Below, piece after piece: positions 1 to 19,863 of a stretch of DNA of 20,000 bases. The notes beneath the pieces are model-generated. The model saw only the letters and a list, made by a program, of their open reading frames with translations. It did not search any database and was not told the DNA's origin. The stretch lies in the IMG/VR virus record IMGVR_UViG_3300010334_000053; one strand, 5' to 3'. Numbering within the stretch: position 1 is the stretch's first letter; every line of letters starts with the position of its first letter. The DNA is from an uncultured virus (IMG/VR IMGVR_UViG_3300010334_000053) (lineage: Duplodnaviria > Heunggongvirae > Uroviricota > Caudoviricetes). The translations under genes and the position numbers were made by a program.

Positions 1-49
1 CAAATAAAACAGCACCGCAGGCAAATCCTGCAACGAAACTCCATGTCAT
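1..49 (-). CDS. N-terminus of a small hydrophobic protein (MTWSFVAGFACGAVLF...), runs off the window
   Basis: ATG overlaps the ligase stop (TAATG coupling); frame open to the window edge. Confidence 0.55.
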   Translation of the reverse strand, partial: MTWSFVAGFACGAVLF

Positions 50-939
50 TACATAGTCTCCAACGATTCACGAACCCAAGCAAGTCGGGCTTGCTCGTCC
101 ATTTCAGTGTACTCAACGATATTAGCGCGGATCTTGTCGATCAGCGGATAATACTCTTCGTCAATTTGCTGCTTGATCTGATCACTCATCAGCTTGTCAG
201 TACGCGGATTGCGAGCAACCCACTTGCTGGTCAAGTAATACGGCGACTTGATCTTAGCAGCAATACCGTCTTCAGTGTAGAACACAAACCCTTCGTGCTT
301 GACGTTCTTCACAGCCTTGAGAAGTTCACCTACCGTAGTACGCACACCCAGAACAGGCAGGCAACCAAACTGAATACCAAACACAGCAAGAGCATGTGAA
401 TCCAACCTCACCGGGCTATCCCATTCCTTCAAACGGTAGCCGATCAAGTACATGCCTTCTTCTTCAGGAACAATATGCGGATCATTGCGATGCACACATT
501 CAAACATGAAAGTTAGGCGAGGATTTGCACGGCAAATTTCACGATACACATCCACGTCAATAAGCTCACGAGCCATTGCACAGAAGTCGCTGTCCAGGCT
601 ACCGGTAGTGCTCACAAGGATATCTCCATTGTGCCAGGTAACCGAAACCATGAAGCCGTTGATCTTGCGATAAGCGTCAACAACAGTGTCGTCGCTTAAC
701 TTAGGAGCCTTCTTTTCGACACCGTAGTTGTAGACCTTGGTAAAGGGACGAGAAACAATGTTGAAGTCCTGGTCGATCACAGTGCCGCGGCATTCCTCAA
801 GGAAGCGATTCCACAGATCGTCGTAAAATACGCGCTTGGTGTACTTGAGCACAAACAAACCTGGATATGCTTCACTTTCACGCATTTTAACCAGCTTGGG
901 ATTCTTTTCAACCCAATTCTTAAGTTCGATCTTGTTCAT
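49..939 (-). CDS. RNA ligase, T4 Rnl1-like nucleotidyltransferase
   Basis: Motif I KING, SRPFTKVYN, FECV, EGFV, KIKS; sigma70 promoter upstream. Confidence 0.85.
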   Translation of the reverse strand: MNKIELKNWVEKNPKLVKMRESEAYPGLFVLKYTKRVFYDDLWNRFLEECRGTVIDQDFNIVSRPFTKVYNYGVEKKAPKLSDDTVVDAYRKINGFMVSVTWHNGDILVSTTGSLDSDFCAMARELIDVDVYREICRANPRLTFMFECVHRNDPHIVPEEEGMYLIGYRLKEWDSPVRLDSHALAVFGIQFGCLPVLGVRTTVGELLKAVKNVKHEGFVFYTEDGIAAKIKSPYYLTSKWVARNPRTDKLMSDQIKQQIDEEYYPLIDKIRANIVEYTEMDEQARLAWVRESLETM

Positions 940-6227: not shown

Positions 6228-6413
6228 TTAGATTGTTTGTTCGTGTTGTTCTATTAATCTATCTATCCAAAAAATCCACCAAGCCTGTTGCAATGCTTTA
6301 TATAACTCTATTGCAGCAGGATCTTTTTGAATATGTACTAAATCAGATTCGGTCGGGTGTGTTTCTCTATACCAAGAAGCAAACGTAGTCGAATCATGTT
6401 GTCTTTTTTTCAT
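6228..6413 (-). CDS. small hypothetical protein
   Basis: ATGA overlap with the Pth2 stop. Confidence 0.6.
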   Translation of the reverse strand: MKKRQHDSTTFASWYRETHPTESDLVHIQKDPAAIELYKALQQAWWIFWIDRLIEQHEQTI

Positions 6414-6808
6414 GTAAACGTCTTTAACGCTTTGATATCGTCACCAATATTTTCTTCTGCAATTGGACCAAGTCCTAAACAGGTCGTGGTCGGCTCGTCG
6501 AACACAGTAAATGCAGCATCAGTTACAAGACTAGTACCACAGATATCCTTGTACTTGTCTTGCAGCACACGTAGTTCTTCTACAGTGTCTACAATCAGCG
6601 TGATCTTATAAGCCCGATCGCCATTCTGGTACTTTTCTGCATCACTAGGTCCGTCACTGGCAAATCCATGTTCACCAGGAAATCTTTTTACAGAATCCCA
6701 AAAACTGTGAAGGTAGGCGTGTCCTGCCTGAGTACACATCTTACCACGAATGCCGTTCATTTTCTTTACCGATTCAAGGGCAAAGATACAGTACATTTTA
6801 ACTTTCAT
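6410..6808 (-). CDS. pth2: peptidyl-tRNA hydrolase, Pth2 family
   Basis: GKMCTQAGHA, KITL, DAAFTV, TTTCLGLGP; true start MKVKMY (the ORF-track extension overlaps tRNA-Cys). Confidence 0.82.
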   Translation of the reverse strand: MKVKMYCIFALESVKKMNGIRGKMCTQAGHAYLHSFWDSVKRFPGEHGFASDGPSDAEKYQNGDRAYKITLIVDTVEELRVLQDKYKDICGTSLVTDAAFTVFDEPTTTCLGLGPIAEENIGDDIKALKTFT

Positions 6809-6826
6809 ATCTCTACCTTTCAAAAT

Positions 6827-6904
6827 TGGAGCGCCGGGCGTGATTCGAACACGCGGTGTTACTGCTTTGCAGGCAGTTGCATTGGGCCTCTCTGCCACCG
6901 ACGC
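6827..6904 (-). tRNA. tRNA-Cys(GCA)
   Basis: Cloverleaf, ACTGC-CTGCAAA-GCAGT, U73, CCA. Confidence 0.92.
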
Positions 6905-8634: not shown

Positions 8635-9111
8635 ATGAATATTAAAGAACTTCTTAACATTTCCGAAGGAGAAATTGTTGATTTTGATGCTGCAAAGCAA
8701 GATAAAGAGTTGAAGGGATTTCACAAAGATTTCATGGGAAAAGTTCAACAACGTGCCAGTGGCATGAATGCAGTAATGTCAGCGATGAAAGAAAAAGGAA
8801 TCTTTGATGATCTTCCTGTTGGAACTAGAATTCGTCTATCAAAAGGCGGAAGTTACAAAGTTATCCGACATGGCGTAACACGTTCAAAAACTGGCATGGA
8901 AAACTCATTTTCAGCAAATTTTCGAAAAGATCATGGATTCGGACCAGCTTATTTTTTGCCTACGGAAGACGGATTCTATACACCACTAGTGTATCTTAGG
9001 AAAGAAGAATCAAACGGCGATTATGAAGAAAGTGGTTTCCATCTTGATAAACTTATGAATTTTGAAACTGGTGAAAAACGTTACACTAAGTTTACCGGTC
9101 CGCAACGTTAA
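8635..9111 (+). CDS. hypothetical late protein
   Basis: AATAAATA upstream, GGAG, MNIKELL N-terminus. Confidence 0.7.
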   Translation: MNIKELLNISEGEIVDFDAAKQDKELKGFHKDFMGKVQQRASGMNAVMSAMKEKGIFDDLPVGTRIRLSKGGSYKVIRHGVTRSKTGMENSFSANFRKDHGFGPAYFLPTEDGFYTPLVYLRKEESNGDYEESGFHLDKLMNFETGEKRYTKFTGPQR

Positions 9112-9650: not shown

Positions 9651-10391
9651 TTATTTTGTAATAACAGGCTGTCCTGCGGCACCTACCGCTTGAGTAGTTG
9701 CAGTCTTTCCGATATTAGCTCCAAATGATAGTTTTCCTTTGACATAAGTTAAAATGTCTAAGAAATACTTTTTCACAGTTGCCATATGATCGAAAAATCC
9801 CATAAATCCTGGCATAGTAACATTTGTAATGATTCCTGCAAATTCTTTAACTTTGTCTACTATAACATCGGTGGCTGTTGAAATTGCAGTTTGAGTCATA
9901 GTTGCTGCTTTTAATAGCATATCTTTAAGATAGCTTAAGAATCCATATAGTCCCAATTTTGCCAAAAATCCTTTCCATCCAGTAGTTTGCATAAAACTAT
10001 TAATAGAAGGTTGTAACATATTCCATAGTTTTTCAACAACAGGCGAAATTGCAGGAATTTTTGTTTTAATTTCAGTAATTAGTGCAACTACTGTTTTTTG
10101 CACATTACGGCACTGTTTGCCTAATTGTGCAACGGTACTATCCATCATTGCTTGATCGGACACAACGTCTTTGATCAAAATTGCCGCAGTTTTAACATCC
10201 GTTATAGCACCCTTGATATCATTGACGGTTTTCGTATACTGATTGCCCAAGTATTGTTTGGCCGAATCTAAAAATCCCTCATAGATTATTTGCTCGGTTA
10301 ATATACTTTTACTGTAGTAAACACCTTCGCAAAGGTATAGATTTTTTAATACAGTATTCTGATTTTCGTAAAGGATTTCATTTATACGCAT
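9651..10391 (-). CDS. hypothetical late helical protein
   Basis: AATAAATA 4 nt before ATG; MRINEIL N-terminus. Confidence 0.72.
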   Translation of the reverse strand: MRINEILYENQNTVLKNLYLCEGVYYSKSILTEQIIYEGFLDSAKQYLGNQYTKTVNDIKGAITDVKTAAILIKDVVSDQAMMDSTVAQLGKQCRNVQKTVVALITEIKTKIPAISPVVEKLWNMLQPSINSFMQTTGWKGFLAKLGLYGFLSYLKDMLLKAATMTQTAISTATDVIVDKVKEFAGIITNVTMPGFMGFFDHMATVKKYFLDILTYVKGKLSFGANIGKTATTQAVGAAGQPVITK

Positions 10392-11058: not shown

Positions 11059-11087
11059 ATTATATGATAGTTATTAGATATTGTCAA
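11059..11087 (-). promoter_or_regulatory. consensus sigma70 promoter heading the tRNA run
   Basis: TTGACA-17 nt-TATAAT. Confidence 0.85.
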
Positions 11088-11815
11088 GAATTTTTGTTTA
11101 AAATTCCAAGAATGTGCTGAACAGCAATATATTTAGCATGGCGATCACCTAGGCCACGTAATGCACTGTTGATAGACCGTGTTGCGGCCTGTGTATTGTC
11201 AAAATTGTCAATTTTAGGACTGACCCGATTTTTCCAATACCAAACCGAAACTTTTGCGGCAACTTCTGGTTTTTCAAGAATTTCAGGATGTTGCTCAAGT
11301 GGCAATCCTAGTGCATTGCCTGCTTTGCGATAATTCTCTCTGCCAGTTAATTGAATATATCCTCTACCGATATACCGTTGACCGTCTCCTGGCCGAGTAT
11401 TGCCTAATCTTTTTGCTTTTTCAGGATTATGTTTTATATCGTATTTTTTAAAATATGCACTATTGCCTATTTCTTGCAATTGCGAAAAATTTAAAGATTC
11501 ATGTGCGCATTGTGCTAAAAATTGTGCAAGTTCTCTGCCCTTTAATCCAGCACCTCGCGCAGCACTGACTAAGGTCTTTCCAGCAACGGTATTAAAAGCA
11601 GCTAACAACTCACTGACCTTTTCAGGATTAGCTTTAATTTTTGGTATTTCCAATTTAACGGAGCTAGATTTTTCTGATGCAGAATTTGGATTATTTTGCA
11701 TTGCTGCATATCCTCCAAGTGCAGCAGTGCCTAACGCTCCTGCTGCAACTGCACCCTTGGCCCATTTAGACAGAGCTTCGTCAATTTGCTCTTCTATGAG
11801 TTCTGAAATTCGCAC
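11084..11815 (-). CDS. glycoside hydrolase family 19 (chitinase-like) peptidoglycan hydrolase
   Basis: FLAQCAHES, GRGYIQLTGRENY, WYW, SIN; N-terminal Ala/Gly-rich hydrophobic helix. Confidence 0.85.
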   Translation of the reverse strand: MRISELIEEQIDEALSKWAKGAVAAGALGTAALGGYAAMQNNPNSASEKSSSVKLEIPKIKANPEKVSELLAAFNTVAGKTLVSAARGAGLKGRELAQFLAQCAHESLNFSQLQEIGNSAYFKKYDIKHNPEKAKRLGNTRPGDGQRYIGRGYIQLTGRENYRKAGNALGLPLEQHPEILEKPEVAAKVSVWYWKNRVSPKIDNFDNTQAATRSINSALRGLGDRHAKYIAVQHILGILNKNS

Positions 11816-12536: not shown

Positions 12537-13895
12537 TTATGACCAGTCGTCTTTGGGAACTTCTTTTTTATAGCTTTGAAGATGCTTGACAATCTTTTTC
12601 AAATATAGCTTCCAAACTTTTAAAAATTGAAGTTCTCTAGCAGATGGATTTGAATTTTGCATTGCCTGCTTTGCTGTAGGAGCAATTATTGATGGATAAG
12701 TATTATTTGGAAAATATCCCCACTTGACATCCTCAATTGCCGAATCAACGAATTCATTGACCTGACGCTGTTTATCATTTGTGGAATATGAATATCGAAA
12801 AGGCTCATTAGAGATGAAGTCCGAGTACAACTGGGTGGCAGCATGTGAAGCATGTGCTTCAATTTCATTGACAGAACCTAAATATGCTGCCCAGCGATCT
12901 ACATTGTATCCAAAATTGTCAGCATCATATGCATTTTGACCTCTCCTACCACCACGATATTTGCGGCGCCGGTTGTCTTTTTGACCGGCTTTTCCTCTTG
13001 TGTCATTTTTGTCATAAGCATAAAGTTTTGGCCTAGGAACACTTGTATCAGGAATCTTGGTGTAATCGCCTTTTCCATATCCACGGTTAGATGACTGCAT
13101 CTTGATATTAGCACGAGCATTCTGATCCATATGAACAACTTCGTGTACGTAAGTACTGACTAATTCTTTAAGAAATGCAGGGACAGGATTATCAACGCCA
13201 CTATCTCCATAACGATTTACGGAATCCCTTTCCAATAATCTGTGGGTTAATACAGTCCATAATTTTTCTTTAGAAGTATATATATTGATGTGCTGCGCAA
13301 GATCGTTCTGCCAATCAATTTGTTGTGACGATCTGCTATGTAAAGTGGATTTTTGTGGAAGACGTTGAAAATACCCGCCGCCAGTCTTTGGTTCGCCAGT
13401 GCGTTTATTTTTGCCAGTTGTGTCAAGTTGAACAATGATGTGCTGAAGCCAATACAAGTTCTTCTTTCTGTTTTCTTCCCATGGCTCATCATGTTTATAT
13501 TGTTCAATCTTACCAAACTGTGCTTCCATGTAATCACGTGCCAAATCCTGTAGATGAAGTTCCATTACATCAATGAATTCATCTACAATATCAATATTCG
13601 GCTCACTTTTGTATAGTTTTGATTGCACGATGCCACTGAGATCTTGTGACTTATATTGAAGATTGGATACAAGTTTATCTTCCTCACGCCGATCTAATCC
13701 ACGACCACGAATTTCTTCAACTCTATTTTCAAGAGAACTCATCTTTTTAAAGTAATTGCCTTCTCCTACTGAATCAAAAATAGATTCAGCATTCCACCTA
13801 ATAAATTGATCGATTTCTCGGGTAAGAAGATCATACGTGGCCTGAGTTAAGCCTGCTGTTTGATCGATTGCTTCTATGAGTTCTGTAATACGCAT
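12537..13895 (-). CDS. late protein with putative zinc metallopeptidase motif
   Basis: HEVVH plus downstream EIEAH; ATAAATA just before ATG. Confidence 0.65.
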   Translation of the reverse strand: MRITELIEAIDQTAGLTQATYDLLTREIDQFIRWNAESIFDSVGEGNYFKKMSSLENRVEEIRGRGLDRREEDKLVSNLQYKSQDLSGIVQSKLYKSEPNIDIVDEFIDVMELHLQDLARDYMEAQFGKIEQYKHDEPWEENRKKNLYWLQHIIVQLDTTGKNKRTGEPKTGGGYFQRLPQKSTLHSRSSQQIDWQNDLAQHINIYTSKEKLWTVLTHRLLERDSVNRYGDSGVDNPVPAFLKELVSTYVHEVVHMDQNARANIKMQSSNRGYGKGDYTKIPDTSVPRPKLYAYDKNDTRGKAGQKDNRRRKYRGGRRGQNAYDADNFGYNVDRWAAYLGSVNEIEAHASHAATQLYSDFISNEPFRYSYSTNDKQRQVNEFVDSAIEDVKWGYFPNNTYPSIIAPTAKQAMQNSNPSARELQFLKVWKLYLKKIVKHLQSYKKEVPKDDWS

Positions 13896-14828: not shown

Positions 14829-15308
14829 TTATTTTTCTTGCCTTAAGGAAAAAACTTCTATTGCGGCTAGAATGTGTTCATCCTGTAGACCTTCGCCGTC
14901 TTCAATATACACTAGCCGTTTAGATTCAGTAAACTTTCTGTCATCAAAGCAAACCCAATCGCATTCACCATTGTCAGCGATCCACTGATTAATGGCAATT
15001 AATCTACCAATACCACGAACAGTGCTTGTCACATCTGTATAATCAATGTTCGGAAAAATTGTTCTCCAATCATTGTGAAAATGTGTTGGATCAATTCCCC
15101 AATGTATTAAATCTTCTTTTAAAGTTTTTCCATAGGGCAAGTGATAATTGTGCATGGAGTTGGTTACAATTTTTGCACCAGACTCAAGGCACAGATCATT
15201 GAGCAATTGAATTGAAACTTTATTACAAGCTAACCGCAGTTCAGATACCATGACTAGAGAACTTACATTAATTATTGGACCATCAATATCTAAAAATATT
15301 ATTCTCAT
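14829..15308 (-). CDS. HAD-family phosphatase (Swiss-Army-Knife RNA-repair type)
   Basis: IFLDIDG, IVTNS, R..AI..W, CFDD, GL motifs. Confidence 0.72.
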   Translation of the reverse strand: MRIIFLDIDGPIINVSSLVMVSELRLACNKVSIQLLNDLCLESGAKIVTNSMHNYHLPYGKTLKEDLIHWGIDPTHFHNDWRTIFPNIDYTDVTSTVRGIGRLIAINQWIADNGECDWVCFDDRKFTESKRLVYIEDGEGLQDEHILAAIEVFSLRQEK

Positions 15309-16186
15309 CTTTTAATTAATTCTTCTGTTAAGTCTATAAAACGAGAAAAGTCATGTAGCTTGTTCTTCCAATCATCAGGAATGTTCGAAAGGCCATAAAA
15401 TGCACCAGCAATTTGTCCAGTAACTGCGGCAACAGTGTCAGTGTCATTGCCCAAGTTAGTGGCAAGTAAAATTGCATCTCGAAAATTATCTGTTTGATAC
15501 ACGCACCATAGGGCAGCATGAAGAGTATGGATAACATATCCAGATGATGAAACATGATCACGACCAACTTCAAGTGATGTGAGAATGTCCTTTACACTCT
15601 GTACCCAATGCTCTTTAGCAGTTATATTAAAGATGCGACTCTTTTCAGTAGCATAGATTGCATTAAGTAACACTTCCGCCATAAGTTCACATGAATGTAA
15701 ACAAGCAGGTGAAGCATGAGTTGTTTCGCTCTGTAAGTTTGCCGTTTCAATTGCCATTTCTTCATTGTCGTAATGTGCAATCACTGCTGGACTCAGGCGC
15801 ATAATTGAACCGTTGCCGGCGTTATATACAGACTTGTTGTTAGTTACTGAGCCAGTTTCAACATAATCCATAATACCACTAATAGTAGTGTTGCCAATGT
15901 CAAAACACCTACCAGTTGATGAGTTTGTTCCATTACTGTACCAATCTACAAAACGATCCAGCAAATCAGCTTTATCAAGCTGGGAATTAGCGATAAGACT
16001 TTCTGCAAGGCAAAGTGCCATACTAGTATCGTCAGTCCAATAACCTACAGGAAGATTGAACGGTCCACCACCAAGCATGTCAGTAACAGGTTCAAAAGTA
16101 TCACGTTCTCTAAATTCCACGGCGGCGCCAACACAGTCTCCAATAGCAAGCCCAATAAATGCTCCAGCTAATTTGTCTTTTAACAT
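15305..16186 (-). CDS. ADP-ribosylglycohydrolase (DraG/ARH family)
   Basis: GDCVG, WTDDT, GNGSIMR, TTH, DTDTVAAVTGQIAGA. Confidence 0.92.
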   Translation of the reverse strand: MLKDKLAGAFIGLAIGDCVGAAVEFRERDTFEPVTDMLGGGPFNLPVGYWTDDTSMALCLAESLIANSQLDKADLLDRFVDWYSNGTNSSTGRCFDIGNTTISGIMDYVETGSVTNNKSVYNAGNGSIMRLSPAVIAHYDNEEMAIETANLQSETTHASPACLHSCELMAEVLLNAIYATEKSRIFNITAKEHWVQSVKDILTSLEVGRDHVSSSGYVIHTLHAALWCVYQTDNFRDAILLATNLGNDTDTVAAVTGQIAGAFYGLSNIPDDWKNKLHDFSRFIDLTEELIKR

Positions 16187-16209: not shown

Positions 16210-16238
16210 ATTATAACACTAGAATGAATTGCTGTCAA
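16210..16238 (-). promoter_or_regulatory. consensus sigma70 promoter of the ARH-HAD operon
   Basis: TTGACA-17 nt-TATAAT. Confidence 0.85.
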
Positions 16239-18978
16239 CTATCTCCATGCCAAGATTTGCTATATAAGCCATTAACTCTTCAATCTCTTGACTGGTTGGA
16301 TTTAATGTGCCAATAGCTTGATCTAATTGATCAATATTTACTTGATTTGACTGTGCTGCACTCTTAATCAATTGTTGAACAGCAGGTAAATCTTTCAATG
16401 GTGTTTTTTTCTTAGCAATATCCTGTATTGGAAAATCTAAAAGTTGCAATTGTTTGAACCCAATATAGTTAGTAGAGCCATCTGAAAAGGTTACATCTGC
16501 GATTTTCATTATATTGGCTACATGAGCTATCTTACCAGTTTTGCCGGCAGCAGGCCCATCAATAACTTTAACAGAATCGCCTTGTTTAAACGAATGGACA
16601 GGTATTACTTCAGGTTCAGAAGTTTTAATTTTTTCAATTTCACTAGGATAAAGAAATGTCTTATCATCAGAATCGTCTAATTTTACTATAACATTGCCAC
16701 TTTTTTGAATCTGAGTTATTGTGCCAGTTTTTCCTGTATTGTGCGTTCCTATGATTTTTACCTTATCGCCCTCTGAATATTGTTTAGGTGTTTTTACTTC
16801 TGGCTCTGGTTCCCACTTGAGATTGTCTAAGTTCAAATCTGGATCATTTTTATCGGGGTTATCAAGTTTTTTAACAGTGAATGTATCATCGCCGTATTCG
16901 TCTATAGCCTGATCATATTCATTCTGAGTGAGGAATTGTCCCTGATAAAGCGGTGTAAGTCCTGGCATAGTAACTTCATAAGCAGCATCTATTAAATTAG
17001 GATTTTCAGCTTCGGCTTTAATCTTTTCAATGTTTTTTAAAGGAACGTCATAAGCAAAGCCACTATCAAATTCTACATCAACTTGTGGGATTGTGGAATA
17101 AGCGTATATTATTTTACCAGTTTTACCGGCGGATGCATGGTCACCAATGATCTTAACCTTATCACCGTTTGAGACCTGACCAATTTCCAGAGTCTTTGGT
17201 GACGCCCCAATTTTTTCAAGATAAACAAAGGGAACATCATGTAATTTTTTACCGTTATCCAACACCAGCGTAGTGTCTTTATGAAAATCAAATACATCAT
17301 CAACAGTGGCTATATCACCTGCGTTAGGGTGCTTGCCAATAATTTTTACCTGGTCACCGACTTTGAAAGCGCCTGTAATTGTTTCTTCTGGTTTTTCTTC
17401 CGACTCTTCTGCATCTAATTTTTTAAATCCACCTGATAGAACATTACCGGATTCGCCGCTTTTGAAAAATATTTCAATCATGCCGCTGTTGTAAATATAG
17501 GATACTGTGCCAGATTGACCATAGTATTCACTATCAGTATTGGTGACTTCAACTGTATCACCTTTTTTAATTTTATCAGTGTCAGTTTTTGGTTCTAGTA
17601 TTTTAATTTGGTTTTGCTTAACAGTACCGTACTCGCCGCCTTTGAAAAATATCTCGATTCCACCATCCTTATATATGTAGGATATAGTTCCAGATCGGCC
17701 ATAATATTCACTATTAGTATCAGTAACTTCAACTGTATCACCTTCTTTAAGATCAGGAGTTTCTGAATCAGCTTCACTTTCGTGTTTAATATCTTTAATC
17801 TTGAAGTCGTTGGTCCAATTTTCACCATCCAACTTCACTGATACTTCGTCATAATTGGTGTAAACATACTGTACTTCACCGGACAGCCCGTAATAGTGAT
17901 TACCCTTGGATTTAACAGTAACACGGTCACCAATTTCATATTTTCCAGGTGTAATGATTTTAGGCTTGCCTTCGGGATAAACTTGTAGTTCTAGAAACTT
18001 CATGATATTTTTCATGAGACTTTCTTGAACAGCATAATATGCACCACGAACAAATACTTCTGAATGAGAAGTAATGGCACCTGTTAGGTCTTCTTGATCT
18101 AAATCAAATCCTTTGACTATTCCTTCAGGAGTCATGATGTTTTCAAGCTCAGTTAAAGGCATGAATTCTTTTGGGATGTCACCTGCTTCAATAGCTTGTT
18201 TAATTGAGTTAAGATTGGATTCTAGATCATATTGCCCAAAGAGATCATTAAAGGTAAAATTATATTTTGCTCCTAGTTTTTCTCGATTGGTTAACACGAA
18301 ATCTTTTAAAGGAGCAAGTAGTTCGTAGTCCAACATTTTTGGATAGGATCCTCTATCTAAAATTAAATCCTTGGTGTTTCGACTCCAGCTAAATGAAAAT
18401 CCATCTTTGGGAAACATTACATATACTTTGCCATATCCCGAAGCCTGACTTTTATCACCTGATACGAATGATGAATTATCTCTTCTTGCTTCGAATCCAG
18501 CTGCTTCCATGCCTTTGTTAAAAATATCACTGAGTCGTGAACTACTTGTCATTACACGGCGCTCATCAAATGGTTTACCATAGAGAGCATCTTCAGTGGA
18601 TTTAATTCCACGATAAAAAACTTTAGCATCTCGTGATTTAAAATCTGGATTTAGATCAATGTATGTTTGTACAATTTGTGTGCAATTGTTTGCAATCCTC
18701 GTCATTAAATTATAAAATTGGATTGGAAGATTATTCTTTTCACTTTTAAGATTTGACTTCTGTTGTTTTAGGGAATCAATTTCTGCATAGAGTCCCTGCT
18801 TCATTTTTTCATATTCAGCAGCAACTGAATCAGGCACTTTCATATTATTTGCAAGGGCCGCGCTTTCTTCATAATCAGTGATTTTCTTCAGCAGTTTTTC
18901 TAGTTTTGGCAAGTTAAGGGACATTCCCTTGCGCTCACCCGGCTTCAGTTCGGATTTAAAGATTTCTATAATTCTCAT
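16219..18978 (-). CDS. large late protein: putative ADP-ribosyltransferase domain, 7 KOW repeats, RpoC-like fragment, sigma70 region 1.1-like C-terminus
   Basis: FYRG/SFVS/SEV triad; GDxV..G..G repeats; PGLTPL..EYGDDTF; C-terminal helical segment ending GMEIVD. Confidence 0.7.
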   Translation of the reverse strand: MRIIEIFKSELKPGERKGMSLNLPKLEKLLKKITDYEESAALANNMKVPDSVAAEYEKMKQGLYAEIDSLKQQKSNLKSEKNNLPIQFYNLMTRIANNCTQIVQTYIDLNPDFKSRDAKVFYRGIKSTEDALYGKPFDERRVMTSSSRLSDIFNKGMEAAGFEARRDNSSFVSGDKSQASGYGKVYVMFPKDGFSFSWSRNTKDLILDRGSYPKMLDYELLAPLKDFVLTNREKLGAKYNFTFNDLFGQYDLESNLNSIKQAIEAGDIPKEFMPLTELENIMTPEGIVKGFDLDQEDLTGAITSHSEVFVRGAYYAVQESLMKNIMKFLELQVYPEGKPKIITPGKYEIGDRVTVKSKGNHYYGLSGEVQYVYTNYDEVSVKLDGENWTNDFKIKDIKHESEADSETPDLKEGDTVEVTDTNSEYYGRSGTISYIYKDGGIEIFFKGGEYGTVKQNQIKILEPKTDTDKIKKGDTVEVTNTDSEYYGQSGTVSYIYNSGMIEIFFKSGESGNVLSGGFKKLDAEESEEKPEETITGAFKVGDQVKIIGKHPNAGDIATVDDVFDFHKDTTLVLDNGKKLHDVPFVYLEKIGASPKTLEIGQVSNGDKVKIIGDHASAGKTGKIIYAYSTIPQVDVEFDSGFAYDVPLKNIEKIKAEAENPNLIDAAYEVTMPGLTPLYQGQFLTQNEYDQAIDEYGDDTFTVKKLDNPDKNDPDLNLDNLKWEPEPEVKTPKQYSEGDKVKIIGTHNTGKTGTITQIQKSGNVIVKLDDSDDKTFLYPSEIEKIKTSEPEVIPVHSFKQGDSVKVIDGPAAGKTGKIAHVANIMKIADVTFSDGSTNYIGFKQLQLLDFPIQDIAKKKTPLKDLPAVQQLIKSAAQSNQVNIDQLDQAIGTLNPTSQEIEELMAYIANLGMEIVDSNSF

Positions 18979-18980
18979 AA

Positions 18981-18998
18981 ACATATTTATAAATATGT
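18981..18998. promoter_or_regulatory. palindromic bidirectional late promoter
   Basis: ACATATTTATAAATATGT contains TATAAATA on both strands between divergent genes. Confidence 0.75.
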
Positions 18999-19001
18999 AT
19001 T

Positions 19002-19757
19002 ATGAAAATAAAAGATCTTTTAAATGAAACCGCTATACAAGAGGGTCCGTATGATCCTCACATTTTTAAAGCAGTTTTTATGGCCGGAGCACCAGGTGCT
19101 GGTAAAACAACTACCGCTAATAAGCTACTCTCTGGTACAGGTCTAAGACACCTCAATGTTGATGATTTTTATAATCTTATGAGACATAAAGGACGCGCTA
19201 GTGGCGATCAAAACAAGGATTACGAAGCATCTTGGAAAACGTATCGCGGCCTAGAAGAATTACTTCGTCAAGGTCGAATTGGTTTAATCATTGATAGTAC
19301 TGCGAAGAATCCAGAAAAGATGGCTGATGTTAAAGCAGACCTAGAAGAAATGGGTTATGAGACTGCAATGATTTTCGTTAACTCATCATTAGAAACAAGT
19401 CTCAAAAGAGCCGCTGAACGTTCACAACGTCCTGGTCCAGACTTTGGAAGAGTAACTCCACCAAAACATATTGAAGATACCTGGAATAAGGTGCAAAAGG
19501 GAATAGGTTCATTACAGAACTTATTTGGAGCAAGGTTCTTTGTTATCGATGCTGAACGTCCCGATGCCAGCATTAACTATGTTGACAAGAGTATTAGATC
19601 TTGGCTTAACACGCCAGTTAAAACACAGGCAGCACGACAGTGGTTATCTGATCCTAAAGCTGCACAAAAGCAAACAAGCACAAAGCCAGCAAAAGATGAA
19701 CCTGCACAAACAACAGGTCAACGCCCTGCTGAACCGGAAACTCCCAAAGAAGTATAA
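19002..19757 (+). CDS. P-loop kinase (AAA_33/zeta-toxin/polynucleotide-kinase-like)
   Basis: GAPGAGKT, NVDD, IIDST, RxxxR lid. Confidence 0.75.
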   Translation: MKIKDLLNETAIQEGPYDPHIFKAVFMAGAPGAGKTTTANKLLSGTGLRHLNVDDFYNLMRHKGRASGDQNKDYEASWKTYRGLEELLRQGRIGLIIDSTAKNPEKMADVKADLEEMGYETAMIFVNSSLETSLKRAAERSQRPGPDFGRVTPPKHIEDTWNKVQKGIGSLQNLFGARFFVIDAERPDASINYVDKSIRSWLNTPVKTQAARQWLSDPKAAQKQTSTKPAKDEPAQTTGQRPAEPETPKEV

Positions 19758-19760
19758 AAA

Positions 19761-19863
19761 CAGGATTGTGTTTTTTTAGGCGGGAATCGAACCCGCTCCG
19801 TTTGCGTTGAAAGCAAATGCTCTACCGATGAGCTACCTAATGGTTTTTTGCTGAAACAATCCT
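19761..19863 (-). ncRNA. carrier-stem ncRNA enclosing a tRNA-like cloverleaf with UCA anticodon
   Basis: AGGATTGT/ACAATCCT, CAGCAA, D arm, TTTGC-TTTCAAC-GCAAA, T arm, short acceptor, no CCA. Confidence 0.7.

Follow-up and report, generated by a model that had tools for sequence, protein, structure and literature searches.

An ADP-ribosyltransferase-like jumbo-phage protein with KOW repeats and RNA polymerase-like modules: a candidate virion-carried effector

Introduction

Alt, ModA and ModB of bacteriophage T4 are ADP-ribosyltransferases (ARTs) that modify host RNA polymerase, and Alt is packaged in the phage head; it carries no KOW, clamp-toe or sigma70 region 1.1 modules. The main channel of the polymerase is exploited by another phage protein, T7 Gp2. 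To our knowledge, T4 Alt is essentially the one known example of a packaged ART that reprogrammes host transcription, polyvalent proteins adding predicted cases. Here we describe a gene in a 20,000-nucleotide (nt) stretch of DNA, hereafter the window, from an uncultured virus of the Caudoviricetes (IMG/VR record IMGVR_UViG_3300010334_000053). Its product, the ART-KOW protein, joins an ART-superfamily-like domain to seven KOW-like repeats, an insert resembling part of RNA polymerase beta' and a tail resembling sigma70 region 1.1. The source is a jumbo, T4-related freshwater phage.

A preliminary description of the gene, made from the DNA letters alone, had proposed an injected R-S-E ART that would use host-derived modules to dock on RNA polymerase, the ribosome or Rho, or to bait defence proteins. 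The reading that we favour, tentatively and at a little short of an even chance, is an Alt-like, virion-carried effector aimed at the host RNA polymerase holoenzyme. Because its relatives in a cultured phage are virion-borne, the ART-KOW protein is probably a delivered effector acting on host gene expression.

Results

A predicted ART-like domain with a conserved candidate active site

The ART-KOW open reading frame (ORF) encodes 921 amino acids (aa) from its first ATG; the coordinates of this and other features are collected in Table 1. Translation probably begins at the second ATG (18978), giving a protein of 919 aa, because residues 1–343 of the homologue P0002 align with query residues 3–345, homologues beginning at the second Met; the preliminary description had placed the start at the same codon. 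The motif strings that it quoted are present in the protein: VFYRGI at aa 122–127, SSFVSGDKSQASGYGKVY at aa 171–188 and HSEVFV at aa 307–312. In an alignment of the query with 46 homologues (47 sequences, the homologues being 22–36% identical to the query), S147, G163, R168, N170 and E309 are invariant, and R125, G126, R142, S171, F173, G185, Y188 and P192 are at least 90% conserved. The alpha/beta domain at aa 88–340 had a single PHROG match, phrog_11975, a family of unknown function (2.1e-27), and a Pfam scan of the domain returned 0 families at E ≤ 5.

An AlphaFold2 (AF2) model of aa 1–345, with the family alignment as input, reached a predicted local distance difference test score (pLDDT) of 92.2. 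A model of the core alone (aa 88–340) had a pLDDT of 94.6 and a predicted template modelling score (pTM) of 0.89. The N-terminal part is modelled as a helix at 3–10, a strand at 18–21 and two helices at 25–46 and 52–79. The core forms a split beta-sheet of two three-stranded units with intervening helices, the arrangement expected of an ART fold. On the predicted secondary structure, R125 belongs to strand 124–127, S171/F173 to strand 172–175 and E309 to strand 309–313, as expected for an ART triad, while Y184/G185 come after a short helix, downstream of the second core strand. Where strand 2 of a canonical enzyme would carry S-T-S, the family consensus is N-S-I-F-T-T and the window protein has N-S-S-F-V-S; the Ser is present and the spacing is non-canonical.

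The N-terminal domain is modelled with confidence, but had no significant match in the PDB by Foldseek: neither the 345-aa model nor the core model had a hit at E ≤ 0.001, and the best rows had TM-scores of about 0.1. Below significance, the OspC3/CopC ADP-riboxanases stood at ranks 3, 8, 9, 15 and 19. When the 345-aa model was submitted to the VIA structure search, coiled-coil matches to aa 25–87 swamped the list, and the core was refolded alone instead. The core was compared with 48,161 PDB representatives, and counts were taken from the best 50 rows. Twenty-nine of these rows align to the helical insert only (model 124–211) and 21 span the core. ART-superfamily proteins make up 17 of the 21, a tally in which 6kyf and 9ld3 are presumed to be ARTs, by recall or by ADP-ribose (ADPR) in the title; the other four rows (2lf6, 5zwo, 7nfx and 3cra) have few aligned residues. 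The nearest structures were BC2332, Arr and the diphtheria-toxin types, not the cholera-toxin types. BC2332-like is classified as SCOP d.166.1.6, in the ADP-ribosylation superfamily, in the available part of PMC3000352, and was paired with the diphtheria toxin active site by ProFunc in the accessible text of PMC3024214. Two ESM Atlas searches gave leads only: by features, DUF2441 was the nearest Pfam-bearing cluster (score 0.83), and by structure, ART-PolyVal and Tse2 ART clusters appeared at low TM-score. We take DUF2441 to be the Pfam name of BC2332-like. In BFVD, fold matches to ART-PolyVal at ranks 37, 44, 48 and 49 were not significant (E 0.18–0.79).

Judged from the model, aa 88–340 would be a divergent, so far unnamed branch of the ART superfamily, with R125, S171/F173 and E309 as its predicted active site. 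The earlier claim of an R-S-E ART stands in so far as the fold is ART-like and a conserved R...S...E lies on the expected strands; it does not stand for a canonical R-S-E enzyme of the Alt/cholera-toxin type. Because [QE]-x-E is missing, we describe a new ART-like family, possibly Alt-like in action, and not a member of the Alt family.

Modules resembling parts of the RNA polymerase holoenzyme

The acidic linker between KOW repeats 5 and 6 holds the insert that the preliminary description had called a beta' fragment. This identification was borne out when aa 655–715 were searched alone: they matched 40 distinct PDB sequences, all 40 of them RNA polymerase beta'. The significant matches fall at about residues 130–187 of beta' (143–175 in Escherichia coli numbering), the best being 7ye1_D 144–180 (E 1e-7). 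In the available part of a 2026 cryo-electron microscopy study (PMC13198411), beta' residues 142–180 are termed the 'clamp toe', and sigma70 region 1.1 and the clamp toe contact each other. Bacterial rpoC matches to the insert are 45–65% identical and come from Puniceicoccaceae, Thioglobus and alphaproteobacterial metagenome-assembled genomes. A near-identical bacterial donor was not found; the best candidate reached 65% identity over 37 aa, and no recent donor was identified. The insert is not essential to the family, because among the 150 listed homologues it was found only in P0002 and P0004. In P0001, the region from the toe insert to the tail (aa about 645–921, ~280 aa) is nearly identical to P0004, and the ART-like domains of the two are only 52% identical. 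As a comparison of sequences, this pattern indicates a putative recent exchange of modules between related phages.

The C-terminal tail had been assigned to sigma70 region 1.1. The assignment stands for the tail of the family, which is homologous to region 1.1, but the window tail alone scores 18.5 bits (E 0.002), under the PF03979 cut-off of 22.5. PF03979 (Sigma70_r1_1) is above its cut-off in 12 of the 44 long homologues, at up to 84.6 bits, and P0031 has at least two sigma-1.1 stretches. Between the window tail and that of P0003 there is a match at 4.7e-8, and P0003 itself passes PF03979 with 30.3 bits. Profile A4, made from 13 family tails including that of the window, gave E-values of 5e-14 for RpoD 24–77, 7e-14 for 2k6x, an isolated region-1.1 domain from Thermotoga, and 1.2e-10 for E. 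coli sigma70 7–58. Retroviral capsid N-domains headed the PDB list for the window tail, at E about 0.06, and were treated as chance matches. The two host-like modules, the region-1.1-like tail and the clamp-toe-like insert, are natural partners; they could latch onto both sides of the holoenzyme interface, or could hold the protein closed until delivery.

All seven KOW-like repeats of the preliminary description were recovered, with GD.V.V motifs starting at aa 352, 415, 475, 543, 607, 739 and 802. The repeats are ~60 aa each, with a pairwise identity of 15–58%. Pfam matches were to KOW4_SPT5 (PF23291; 1.9e-14, 53.7 bits against a cut-off of 27), to KOW7_SPT5 at aa 738–774 (1.8e-6), to PF23287 (28.1 bits against 27.1) and, for repeat 7 (aa 802–822), to PF00467 KOW (23.1 bits against 22.3). 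The region at aa 733–857 matched phrog_6386, 'transcription antiterminator' (4.8e-6). Repeat 3 (about aa 478–545; window 17347–17552) is a 58%-identical copy of repeat 2. Because it is missing in P0002/L003, and contigs of the lake DNA runs X3 and X4 join 17347 to 17552 and so skip 204 nt, the number of repeats is polymorphic. The net charge of the whole protein is −36, and that of the acidic linker (aa 656–732, 77 aa) is −12.

A large family with members in Atu_ph07 virions

A search of 1.84 billion representatives with aa 1–345 returned 1283 proteins at E ≤ 1e-3, 333 at ≤ 1e-10 and 40 at ≤ 1e-30; the figure of about 1283 refers to representatives at 50% clustering. Stand-alone proteins of ~320 aa are numerous among them, as are fusions of 500–2600 aa. 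KOW-type matches were present in 30 of the 44 long homologues scanned. No informative fused domains were seen in 41 further homologues, and MuF, portal and other polyvalent-protein domains were absent from the 85 homologues scanned. A homologue search with the core, restricted to near lengths, gave 162 candidates and 0 at E ≤ 1e-5. The source databases name homologues 'NusG' or 'ribosomal protein L24/adenylate kinase', from their KOW and kinase parts.

Related contigs carry the gene at different distances. A 334-kb contig encodes a 94%-identical protein, and an 84-kb IMG/VR contig (L003) a 79%-identical orthologue. The orthologue in a 330-kb, 93% complete contig (G002) is 58% identical to P0006, which is 40% identical to the window protein. 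The nearest record, G001, is without the gene, locus searches with P0016 and P0025 found no loci, and megablast of the window against phages gave no match. Freshwater and lake metagenome runs from several studies contain DNA of the stretch.

Among 50,697 phage records the sole match was the 490-kb Agrobacterium phage Atu_ph07. Profile A2 had 12 matches there, 11 of them in a tandem array from gp54 (which has two domains) to gp63 and one elsewhere, AUZ95167; gp numbers were derived from accession order and checked against named genes and molecular weights. Ten proteins, gp54–gp63, thus match the domain profile. Equivalents of R125, R142, R168 and S171 are kept in all ten, and that of E309 in eight, being absent from the alignment in gp55 and gp58. 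The neighbouring gp53 is linked to the family by its kinase match. A 778-aa 'Zeta toxin domain-containing protein' in BFVD matched the ART-like model by Foldseek at 8.7e-9 and, as mapped by matching protein length, is gp53. Full-text literature searches and the available parts of PMC7824862 and PMC9503650 yielded no account of the family, of its architecture or of the gp53–63 array.

All of gp53–gp63 were detected by electrospray ionization tandem mass spectrometry of Atu_ph07 virions purified with polyethylene glycol (PEG), at a coverage of 12–47% (PMC6102473 Table S5). Unique peptides in the same table numbered 31 for gp53, 15 for gp54, 3 for gp55, 11 for gp56, 9 for gp57, 7 each for gp58 and gp59, 10 for gp60, 9 for gp61, 12 for gp62 and 13 for gp63. 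We regard this proteome as good but not final evidence of packaging. The idea of a packaged effector, raised in the preliminary description, is in this way supported for the Atu_ph07 homologues, and packaging in the phage of the window would follow by analogy. The 87-kDa gp53 (MF403008.1 39484–41820) is the most abundant protein in virion gel band 9, which lies below band 6, that of the 43.5-kDa capsid protein, and also below band 8, that of the 30-kDa paralogues; this position suggests proteolytic processing. A prohead protease of the T4 gp21 type (PF03420) is encoded in G002 and in Atu_ph07. In T4, gp21 cleaves after the Glu of I/L-x-E, and a short capsid-targeting sequence stands at the N-terminus of internal proteins.

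The N-terminus of the ART-KOW protein was said to be shared with other products of the window, and this was confirmed. The pattern M[RKN][ILV].[ED][LIVF] occurs at 7 of 298 candidate starts, against a mean of 0.61 for 119 permuted patterns, one of which reaches 7. The ORFs concerned encode, besides the ART-KOW protein, a kinase, a GH19 lysin and three proteins of unknown function of 452, 246 and 158 aa; these three have no homologue in G002 or among Atu_ph07 gp1–gp67. In Atu_ph07, gp54–gp62 all begin M[RK]WxQL[TN]E and gp63 begins MRLFQLLE. The shared N-terminus may act as a signal for targeting or processing that these proteins have in common; that the motif belongs to the conserved N-terminal helix of the family speaks against a general signal.

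The locus and its neighbours

An ADP-ribosylglycohydrolase (ARH) gene lies downstream of the ART-KOW gene on the same strand, across a 32-nt gap, and an ARH gene directly follows the orthologue in all three related contigs (here, L003 and G002). This pairing argues for ADP-ribose chemistry and, by analogy with known ART–ARH pairs, suggests a reversible or self-protected ADP-ribosylation. The order kinase, ART-KOW, ARH, HAD phosphatase is kept in L003 and G002, and P0004 joins the two proteins in one chain, with the kinase N-terminal to the ART-KOW part. The kinase is 36% identical to Atu_ph07 gp53; it also matches a polynucleotide kinase PHROG at 2.1e-9. Together, the kinase and the HAD_SAK_2 phosphatase resemble T4 Pnkp split in two, and the window also encodes an Rnl1-type RNA ligase. 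By sequence, a putative RNA-repair set flanks the ART/ARH pair.

Table 1. Positions of features in the 20,000-nt window
Feature	Position	Strand	Basis or remark
Whole ART-KOW ORF	16219..18984	-	921 aa; stop codon 16219-16221
N-terminal helix MRIIEIFK, short strand KPGERKG.S and long coiled-coil hairpin, aa 3-87	18724..18978	-	
ART-superfamily-like alpha/beta domain, aa 88-340	17965..18723	-	Matches phrog_11975, function unknown
R125, candidate NAD-binding/catalytic Arg, YRG on first core strand	18610..18612	-	At least 90% conserved, n = 47
S171-S-F173, start of second core strand; family consensus N-S-I-F-T-T	18466..18474	-	Conservation and strand 172-175
Helical insert within ART-like domain, aa 211-305, between core strands 4 and 5	18070..18354	-	DSSP of models
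E309, candidate catalytic Glu, start of strand after helical insert	18058..18060	-	Invariant, 47/47
KOW/SH3-like repeats 1-5, aa 346-655	17020..17949	-	Repeat motif, Pfam
beta' clamp-toe-like insert, aa 668-704, inside acidic linker aa 656-732	16873..16983	-	PDB matches
KOW-like repeats 6 and 7, aa 733-857	16414..16788	-	Repeat 7 above Pfam KOW cut-off
sigma70 region-1.1-like C-terminal tail, aa 868-919	16228..16383	-	PF03979 E 0.002 and family tail profile
Palindromic TATTTATAAATA element between divergent ATGs	18984..18995	both	TATAAATA on each strand
Divergent Zeta-toxin/AAA_33-type P-loop kinase gene	19002..19757	+	PF06414 2.4e-19; M-[RKN]-I-x-[ED]-[LI] start
ARH gene	15305..16186	-	PF03747 4e-70, 237.2 bits against 26.2, profile 1-287/287
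HAD_SAK_2 phosphatase gene	14829..15308	-	PF18143 2.3e-9; 4-nt overlap with ARH end; syntenic in L003, G002
Other ORF with M-[RKN]-I-x-[ED]-[LI] start	8635..9111	+	
Other ORF with M-[RKN]-I-x-[ED]-[LI] start	9651..10391	-	
Other ORF with M-[RKN]-I-x-[ED]-[LI] start	11084..11815	-	
Other ORF with M-[RKN]-I-x-[ED]-[LI] start	12537..13895	-	
Rnl1-type RNA ligase	49..939	-	
PTH2-like ORF	6410..6898	-	Listed GTG start inside tRNA-Cys (6827-6904); Pfam match begins at aa 51

The ART-KOW gene and the divergent kinase gene are separated by a palindromic element. On the minus strand TATAAATA occupies 18984–18991, upstream of the ATG at 18978 by 5 nt; for the palindromic partner, the distance to the ATG of the divergent gene is 6 nt. 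Taken as an exact octamer, TATAAATA shows no enrichment in the window: its 3 sites compare with an expected 1.47, and at least as many occurred in 36 of 200 shuffles. A looser layout, ATAAATA-N0-6-ATG, is enriched: it accounts for 7 of 12 sites in the window, as compared with 50 of 254 for 20 permuted heptamers, and for 25 of 89 in G002, as compared with 542 of 4518. ATAAATA-N4-ATG recurs in G002 at the orthologous divergent pair, 303324(−)/303354(+). In the window, ATAAATA-N4-6-ATG opens ORFs that start M[RK]I.[ED][LI] at 19002(+), 18978(−), 13895(−) and 10391(−). As to the late promoter assigned to the gene in the preliminary description, the TATAAATA element is present but lies only 5 nt from the ATG. 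The ATAAATA sites may be T4-type late promoters giving leaderless or near-leaderless mRNAs; if the element before the ART-KOW gene is one, its distance from the ATG would make the mRNA leaderless or nearly so. In a lake metatranscriptome run the ART-KOW gene is represented by four pieces and the kinase gene by two, at an identity of at least 99%; these are contigs only, which carry no strand, start or level, whose uncovered parts are uninformative, and in which DNA carry-over is possible.

The window also holds a phosphoesterase, homing endonucleases, a TROVE-like DUF2828/DUF7788 protein, PTH2 and the GH19 lysin. ARAGORN found 17 tRNA genes, all on the minus strand, one at 19772–19843 and 16 between 6827 and 14823. 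One 72-nt tRNA with a tca anticodon, labelled SeC by ARAGORN, looks like an opal suppressor; Atu_ph07 has one 'Suppressor TCA' tRNA (PMC6102473 Table S4). The true start of the PTH2-like ORF is probably further downstream than the listed one.

Discussion

If the ART-KOW protein is an Alt-like effector aimed at the RNA polymerase holoenzyme, its parts could act as follows. The ART-like domain would use NAD+ to ADP-ribosylate a host macromolecule, with R142 and R168 as extra conserved arginines. The seven KOW/SH3-like barrels would serve as a flexible acidic arm. The region-1.1-like tail would occupy the sites of host region 1.1, that is the main channel and the clamp-toe/NCR pocket, and the clamp-toe-like insert would engage the partners of the real toe, the sigma70 NCR and region 1.1. 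Tail, insert and arm together would place the enzyme on the sigma70 holoenzyme, making the polymerase its presumed target. The protein would probably be made late, carried in the virion and released in the next host, as T4 Alt is, and the ARH encoded downstream would act as an antidote that reverses or contains the modification. A bolder form of the proposal holds that interface mimicry on both sides positions a new ART clade to ADP-ribosylate RNA polymerase or sigma early in infection, that the ARH resets or contains the mark, and that the family is a widespread, unrecognized class of head-delivered jumbo-phage enzymes (~1300 representatives, 11 virion paralogues in Atu_ph07). We consider this form unlikely in its entirety.

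Several observations weigh against an Alt-like effector directed at the polymerase. At the level of sequence no ART link was found: of the 119 Pfam families matched by the 47 members, the 25 matched most often include no ART family, and profile A1 found coiled-coil noise alone among PDB sequences (E ≥ 0.2). The triad was placed by mapping residues onto predicted secondary structure only, and instead of [QE]-x-E the family consensus is S-G-x-E-V and the window protein has S-H-S-E-V. The polymerase-like modules have their own weak points, since the toe insert is present in only 2 of 150 listed homologues (P0002 and P0004), and the window tail alone finds RpoD in the PDB at E 0.69. As regards delivery, the Atu_ph07 virions were PEG-purified and the list of 131 proteins includes likely contaminants (PMC6102473). 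The shared N-terminal motif is not enriched genome-wide in G002, where 11 occurrences compare with an expectation of 5.3 and the same number is attained by 6 of 119 permuted patterns. Finally, Atu_ph07 has 11 paralogues and no ARH, and the neighbouring kinase, HAD phosphatase and RNA ligase suit RNA repair no less than host takeover.

This last point leads to an account in which the protein would modify RNA ends or other nucleic acid, acting like Tpt1/KptA or DarT on RNA or DNA ends that are phosphorylated or damaged, as part of an RNA-repair or counter-defence module with the kinase, HAD phosphatase, ARH and ligase, its KOW repeats binding RNA or the ribosome. The conserved gene order in L003 and G002, the fusion of kinase and ART-like protein in P0004 and, as mapped, in gp53, and the match of the kinase to a polynucleotide kinase PHROG all agree with such a role, as does the presence of RNA ligase, phosphoesterase, TROVE-like protein, PTH2 and the 17 tRNA genes in one window. 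Tpt1 has an Arg-His-Arg-Arg tetrad, and R125, R142 and R168 could likewise bind phosphates. KptA-type ARTs are, moreover, discussed for jumbo-phage RNA repair in the available part of PMC7824862. A sigma-1.1 tail and a beta' toe, however, indicate RNA polymerase and not RNA ends. Homologues carried in virions would be unusual for repair enzymes, Atu_ph07 keeps its paralogues without an ARH, and the best fold matches are BC2332, Arr and toxins, not Tpt1. We rate an RNA-end modifier as rather unlikely.

The same Atu_ph07 data could be explained by a mainly structural part of the virion, head-internal or decorating, in which a non-catalytic ART-like scaffold is joined to KOW spacers and the polymerase-like pieces are incidental captures. 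The ten profile-matching paralogues are abundant in the particles, with coverage up to 47%, the repeat number differs between strains, and gp55 and gp58 have no E309 equivalent in the alignment. Yet an invariant E309 and near-invariant R and S across 47 sequences at 22–36% identity are the pattern of an active site and not of a scaffold; the ARH neighbour is conserved, and a sigma-1.1 tail that recurs above the Pfam cut-off in 12 of 44 homologues is hard to call incidental. A structural role is in our judgement quite unlikely. Improbable, finally, is a non-enzymatic mimic or decoy, whose tail and toe would sequester sigma70 or block the channel in an anti-sigma or Gp2-like way, or bait defence sensors, the ART-like domain being secondary. 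It would account for two host-like modules that are partners at one holoenzyme interface, for the several sigma-1.1 stretches of P0031 and for the strong acidity, both overall and in the toe/linker, acidity being a feature of DNA mimics. Against it, the ART-like domain is the most conserved part of the family and often stands alone at ~320 aa among the about 1283 representatives, and the toe insert is confined to one small subgroup. The Alt-like, virion-carried effector remains the reading that we prefer, with the tentativeness stated at the outset.

The family matters beyond this locus. It is a large unannotated family of predicted enzymes, which has about 1283 representatives and no Pfam model, whose PHROG is marked 'unknown' and whose names in source databases derive from KOW repeats. 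Atu_ph07, a cultured phage with 11 family proteins in its virions, offers an experimental handle. If our reading is true, targeting by copies of sigma70 region 1.1 and the beta' clamp toe is a clear case of interface mimicry from host-like parts, and it makes testable how jumbo phages without a polymerase of their own seize host transcription.

Comparison with known systems places the protein between several of them. From NusG and Spt5 it has KOW repeats, repeat 7 lying above the KOW cut-off and several others matching Spt5 KOW4/KOW7, but in seven tandem copies and without an NGN domain. The homology of the family tail to sigma70 region 1.1 (RpoD 5e-14, 2k6x 7e-14) is set in a different context, at the C-terminal end of a protein that is not a sigma factor and has no sigma regions 2–4, and the window copy is divergent. 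BC2332-like (PDB 2AUA) and the diphtheria-toxin/Arr branch, the nearest folds, differ in sharing 8% identity and in having His where the window protein has Arg on strand 1; the window family, in addition, has a 95-residue helical insert before the Glu strand, and is phage-borne and multi-domain. With DraT/DraG and Tre1/Tri1 the locus shares an ART-like gene directly followed by an ARH gene (3/3 related contigs). It differs from them in its phage setting, in an ART domain unrelated in sequence and in a pairing that is not universal, Atu_ph07 being without ARH. The idea of an ART that is delivered with the virion and linked to further modules is shared with ART-PolyVal of the polyvalent proteins, as described in the available part of PMC9503650, but the MuF, portal and other polyvalent domains of those proteins were not seen in the 85 homologues scanned.

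The closest parallel is T4 Alt, together with ModA and ModB. Common to both are an ART-superfamily fold (predicted here), virion-borne proteins (here, homologues in Atu_ph07), modules or targets that point to RNA polymerase, and T4-type morphogenesis genes with a gp21-type protease in the relatives; Atu_ph07 has 16 T4 core proteins according to the available part of PMC6102473. The window family differs in that no sequence link to an ART Pfam family was found, in the absence of [QE]-x-E and in being paired with an ARH gene. Packaged phage ARTs are already known; what is new here is the ART-like family and its host-mimicking address label.

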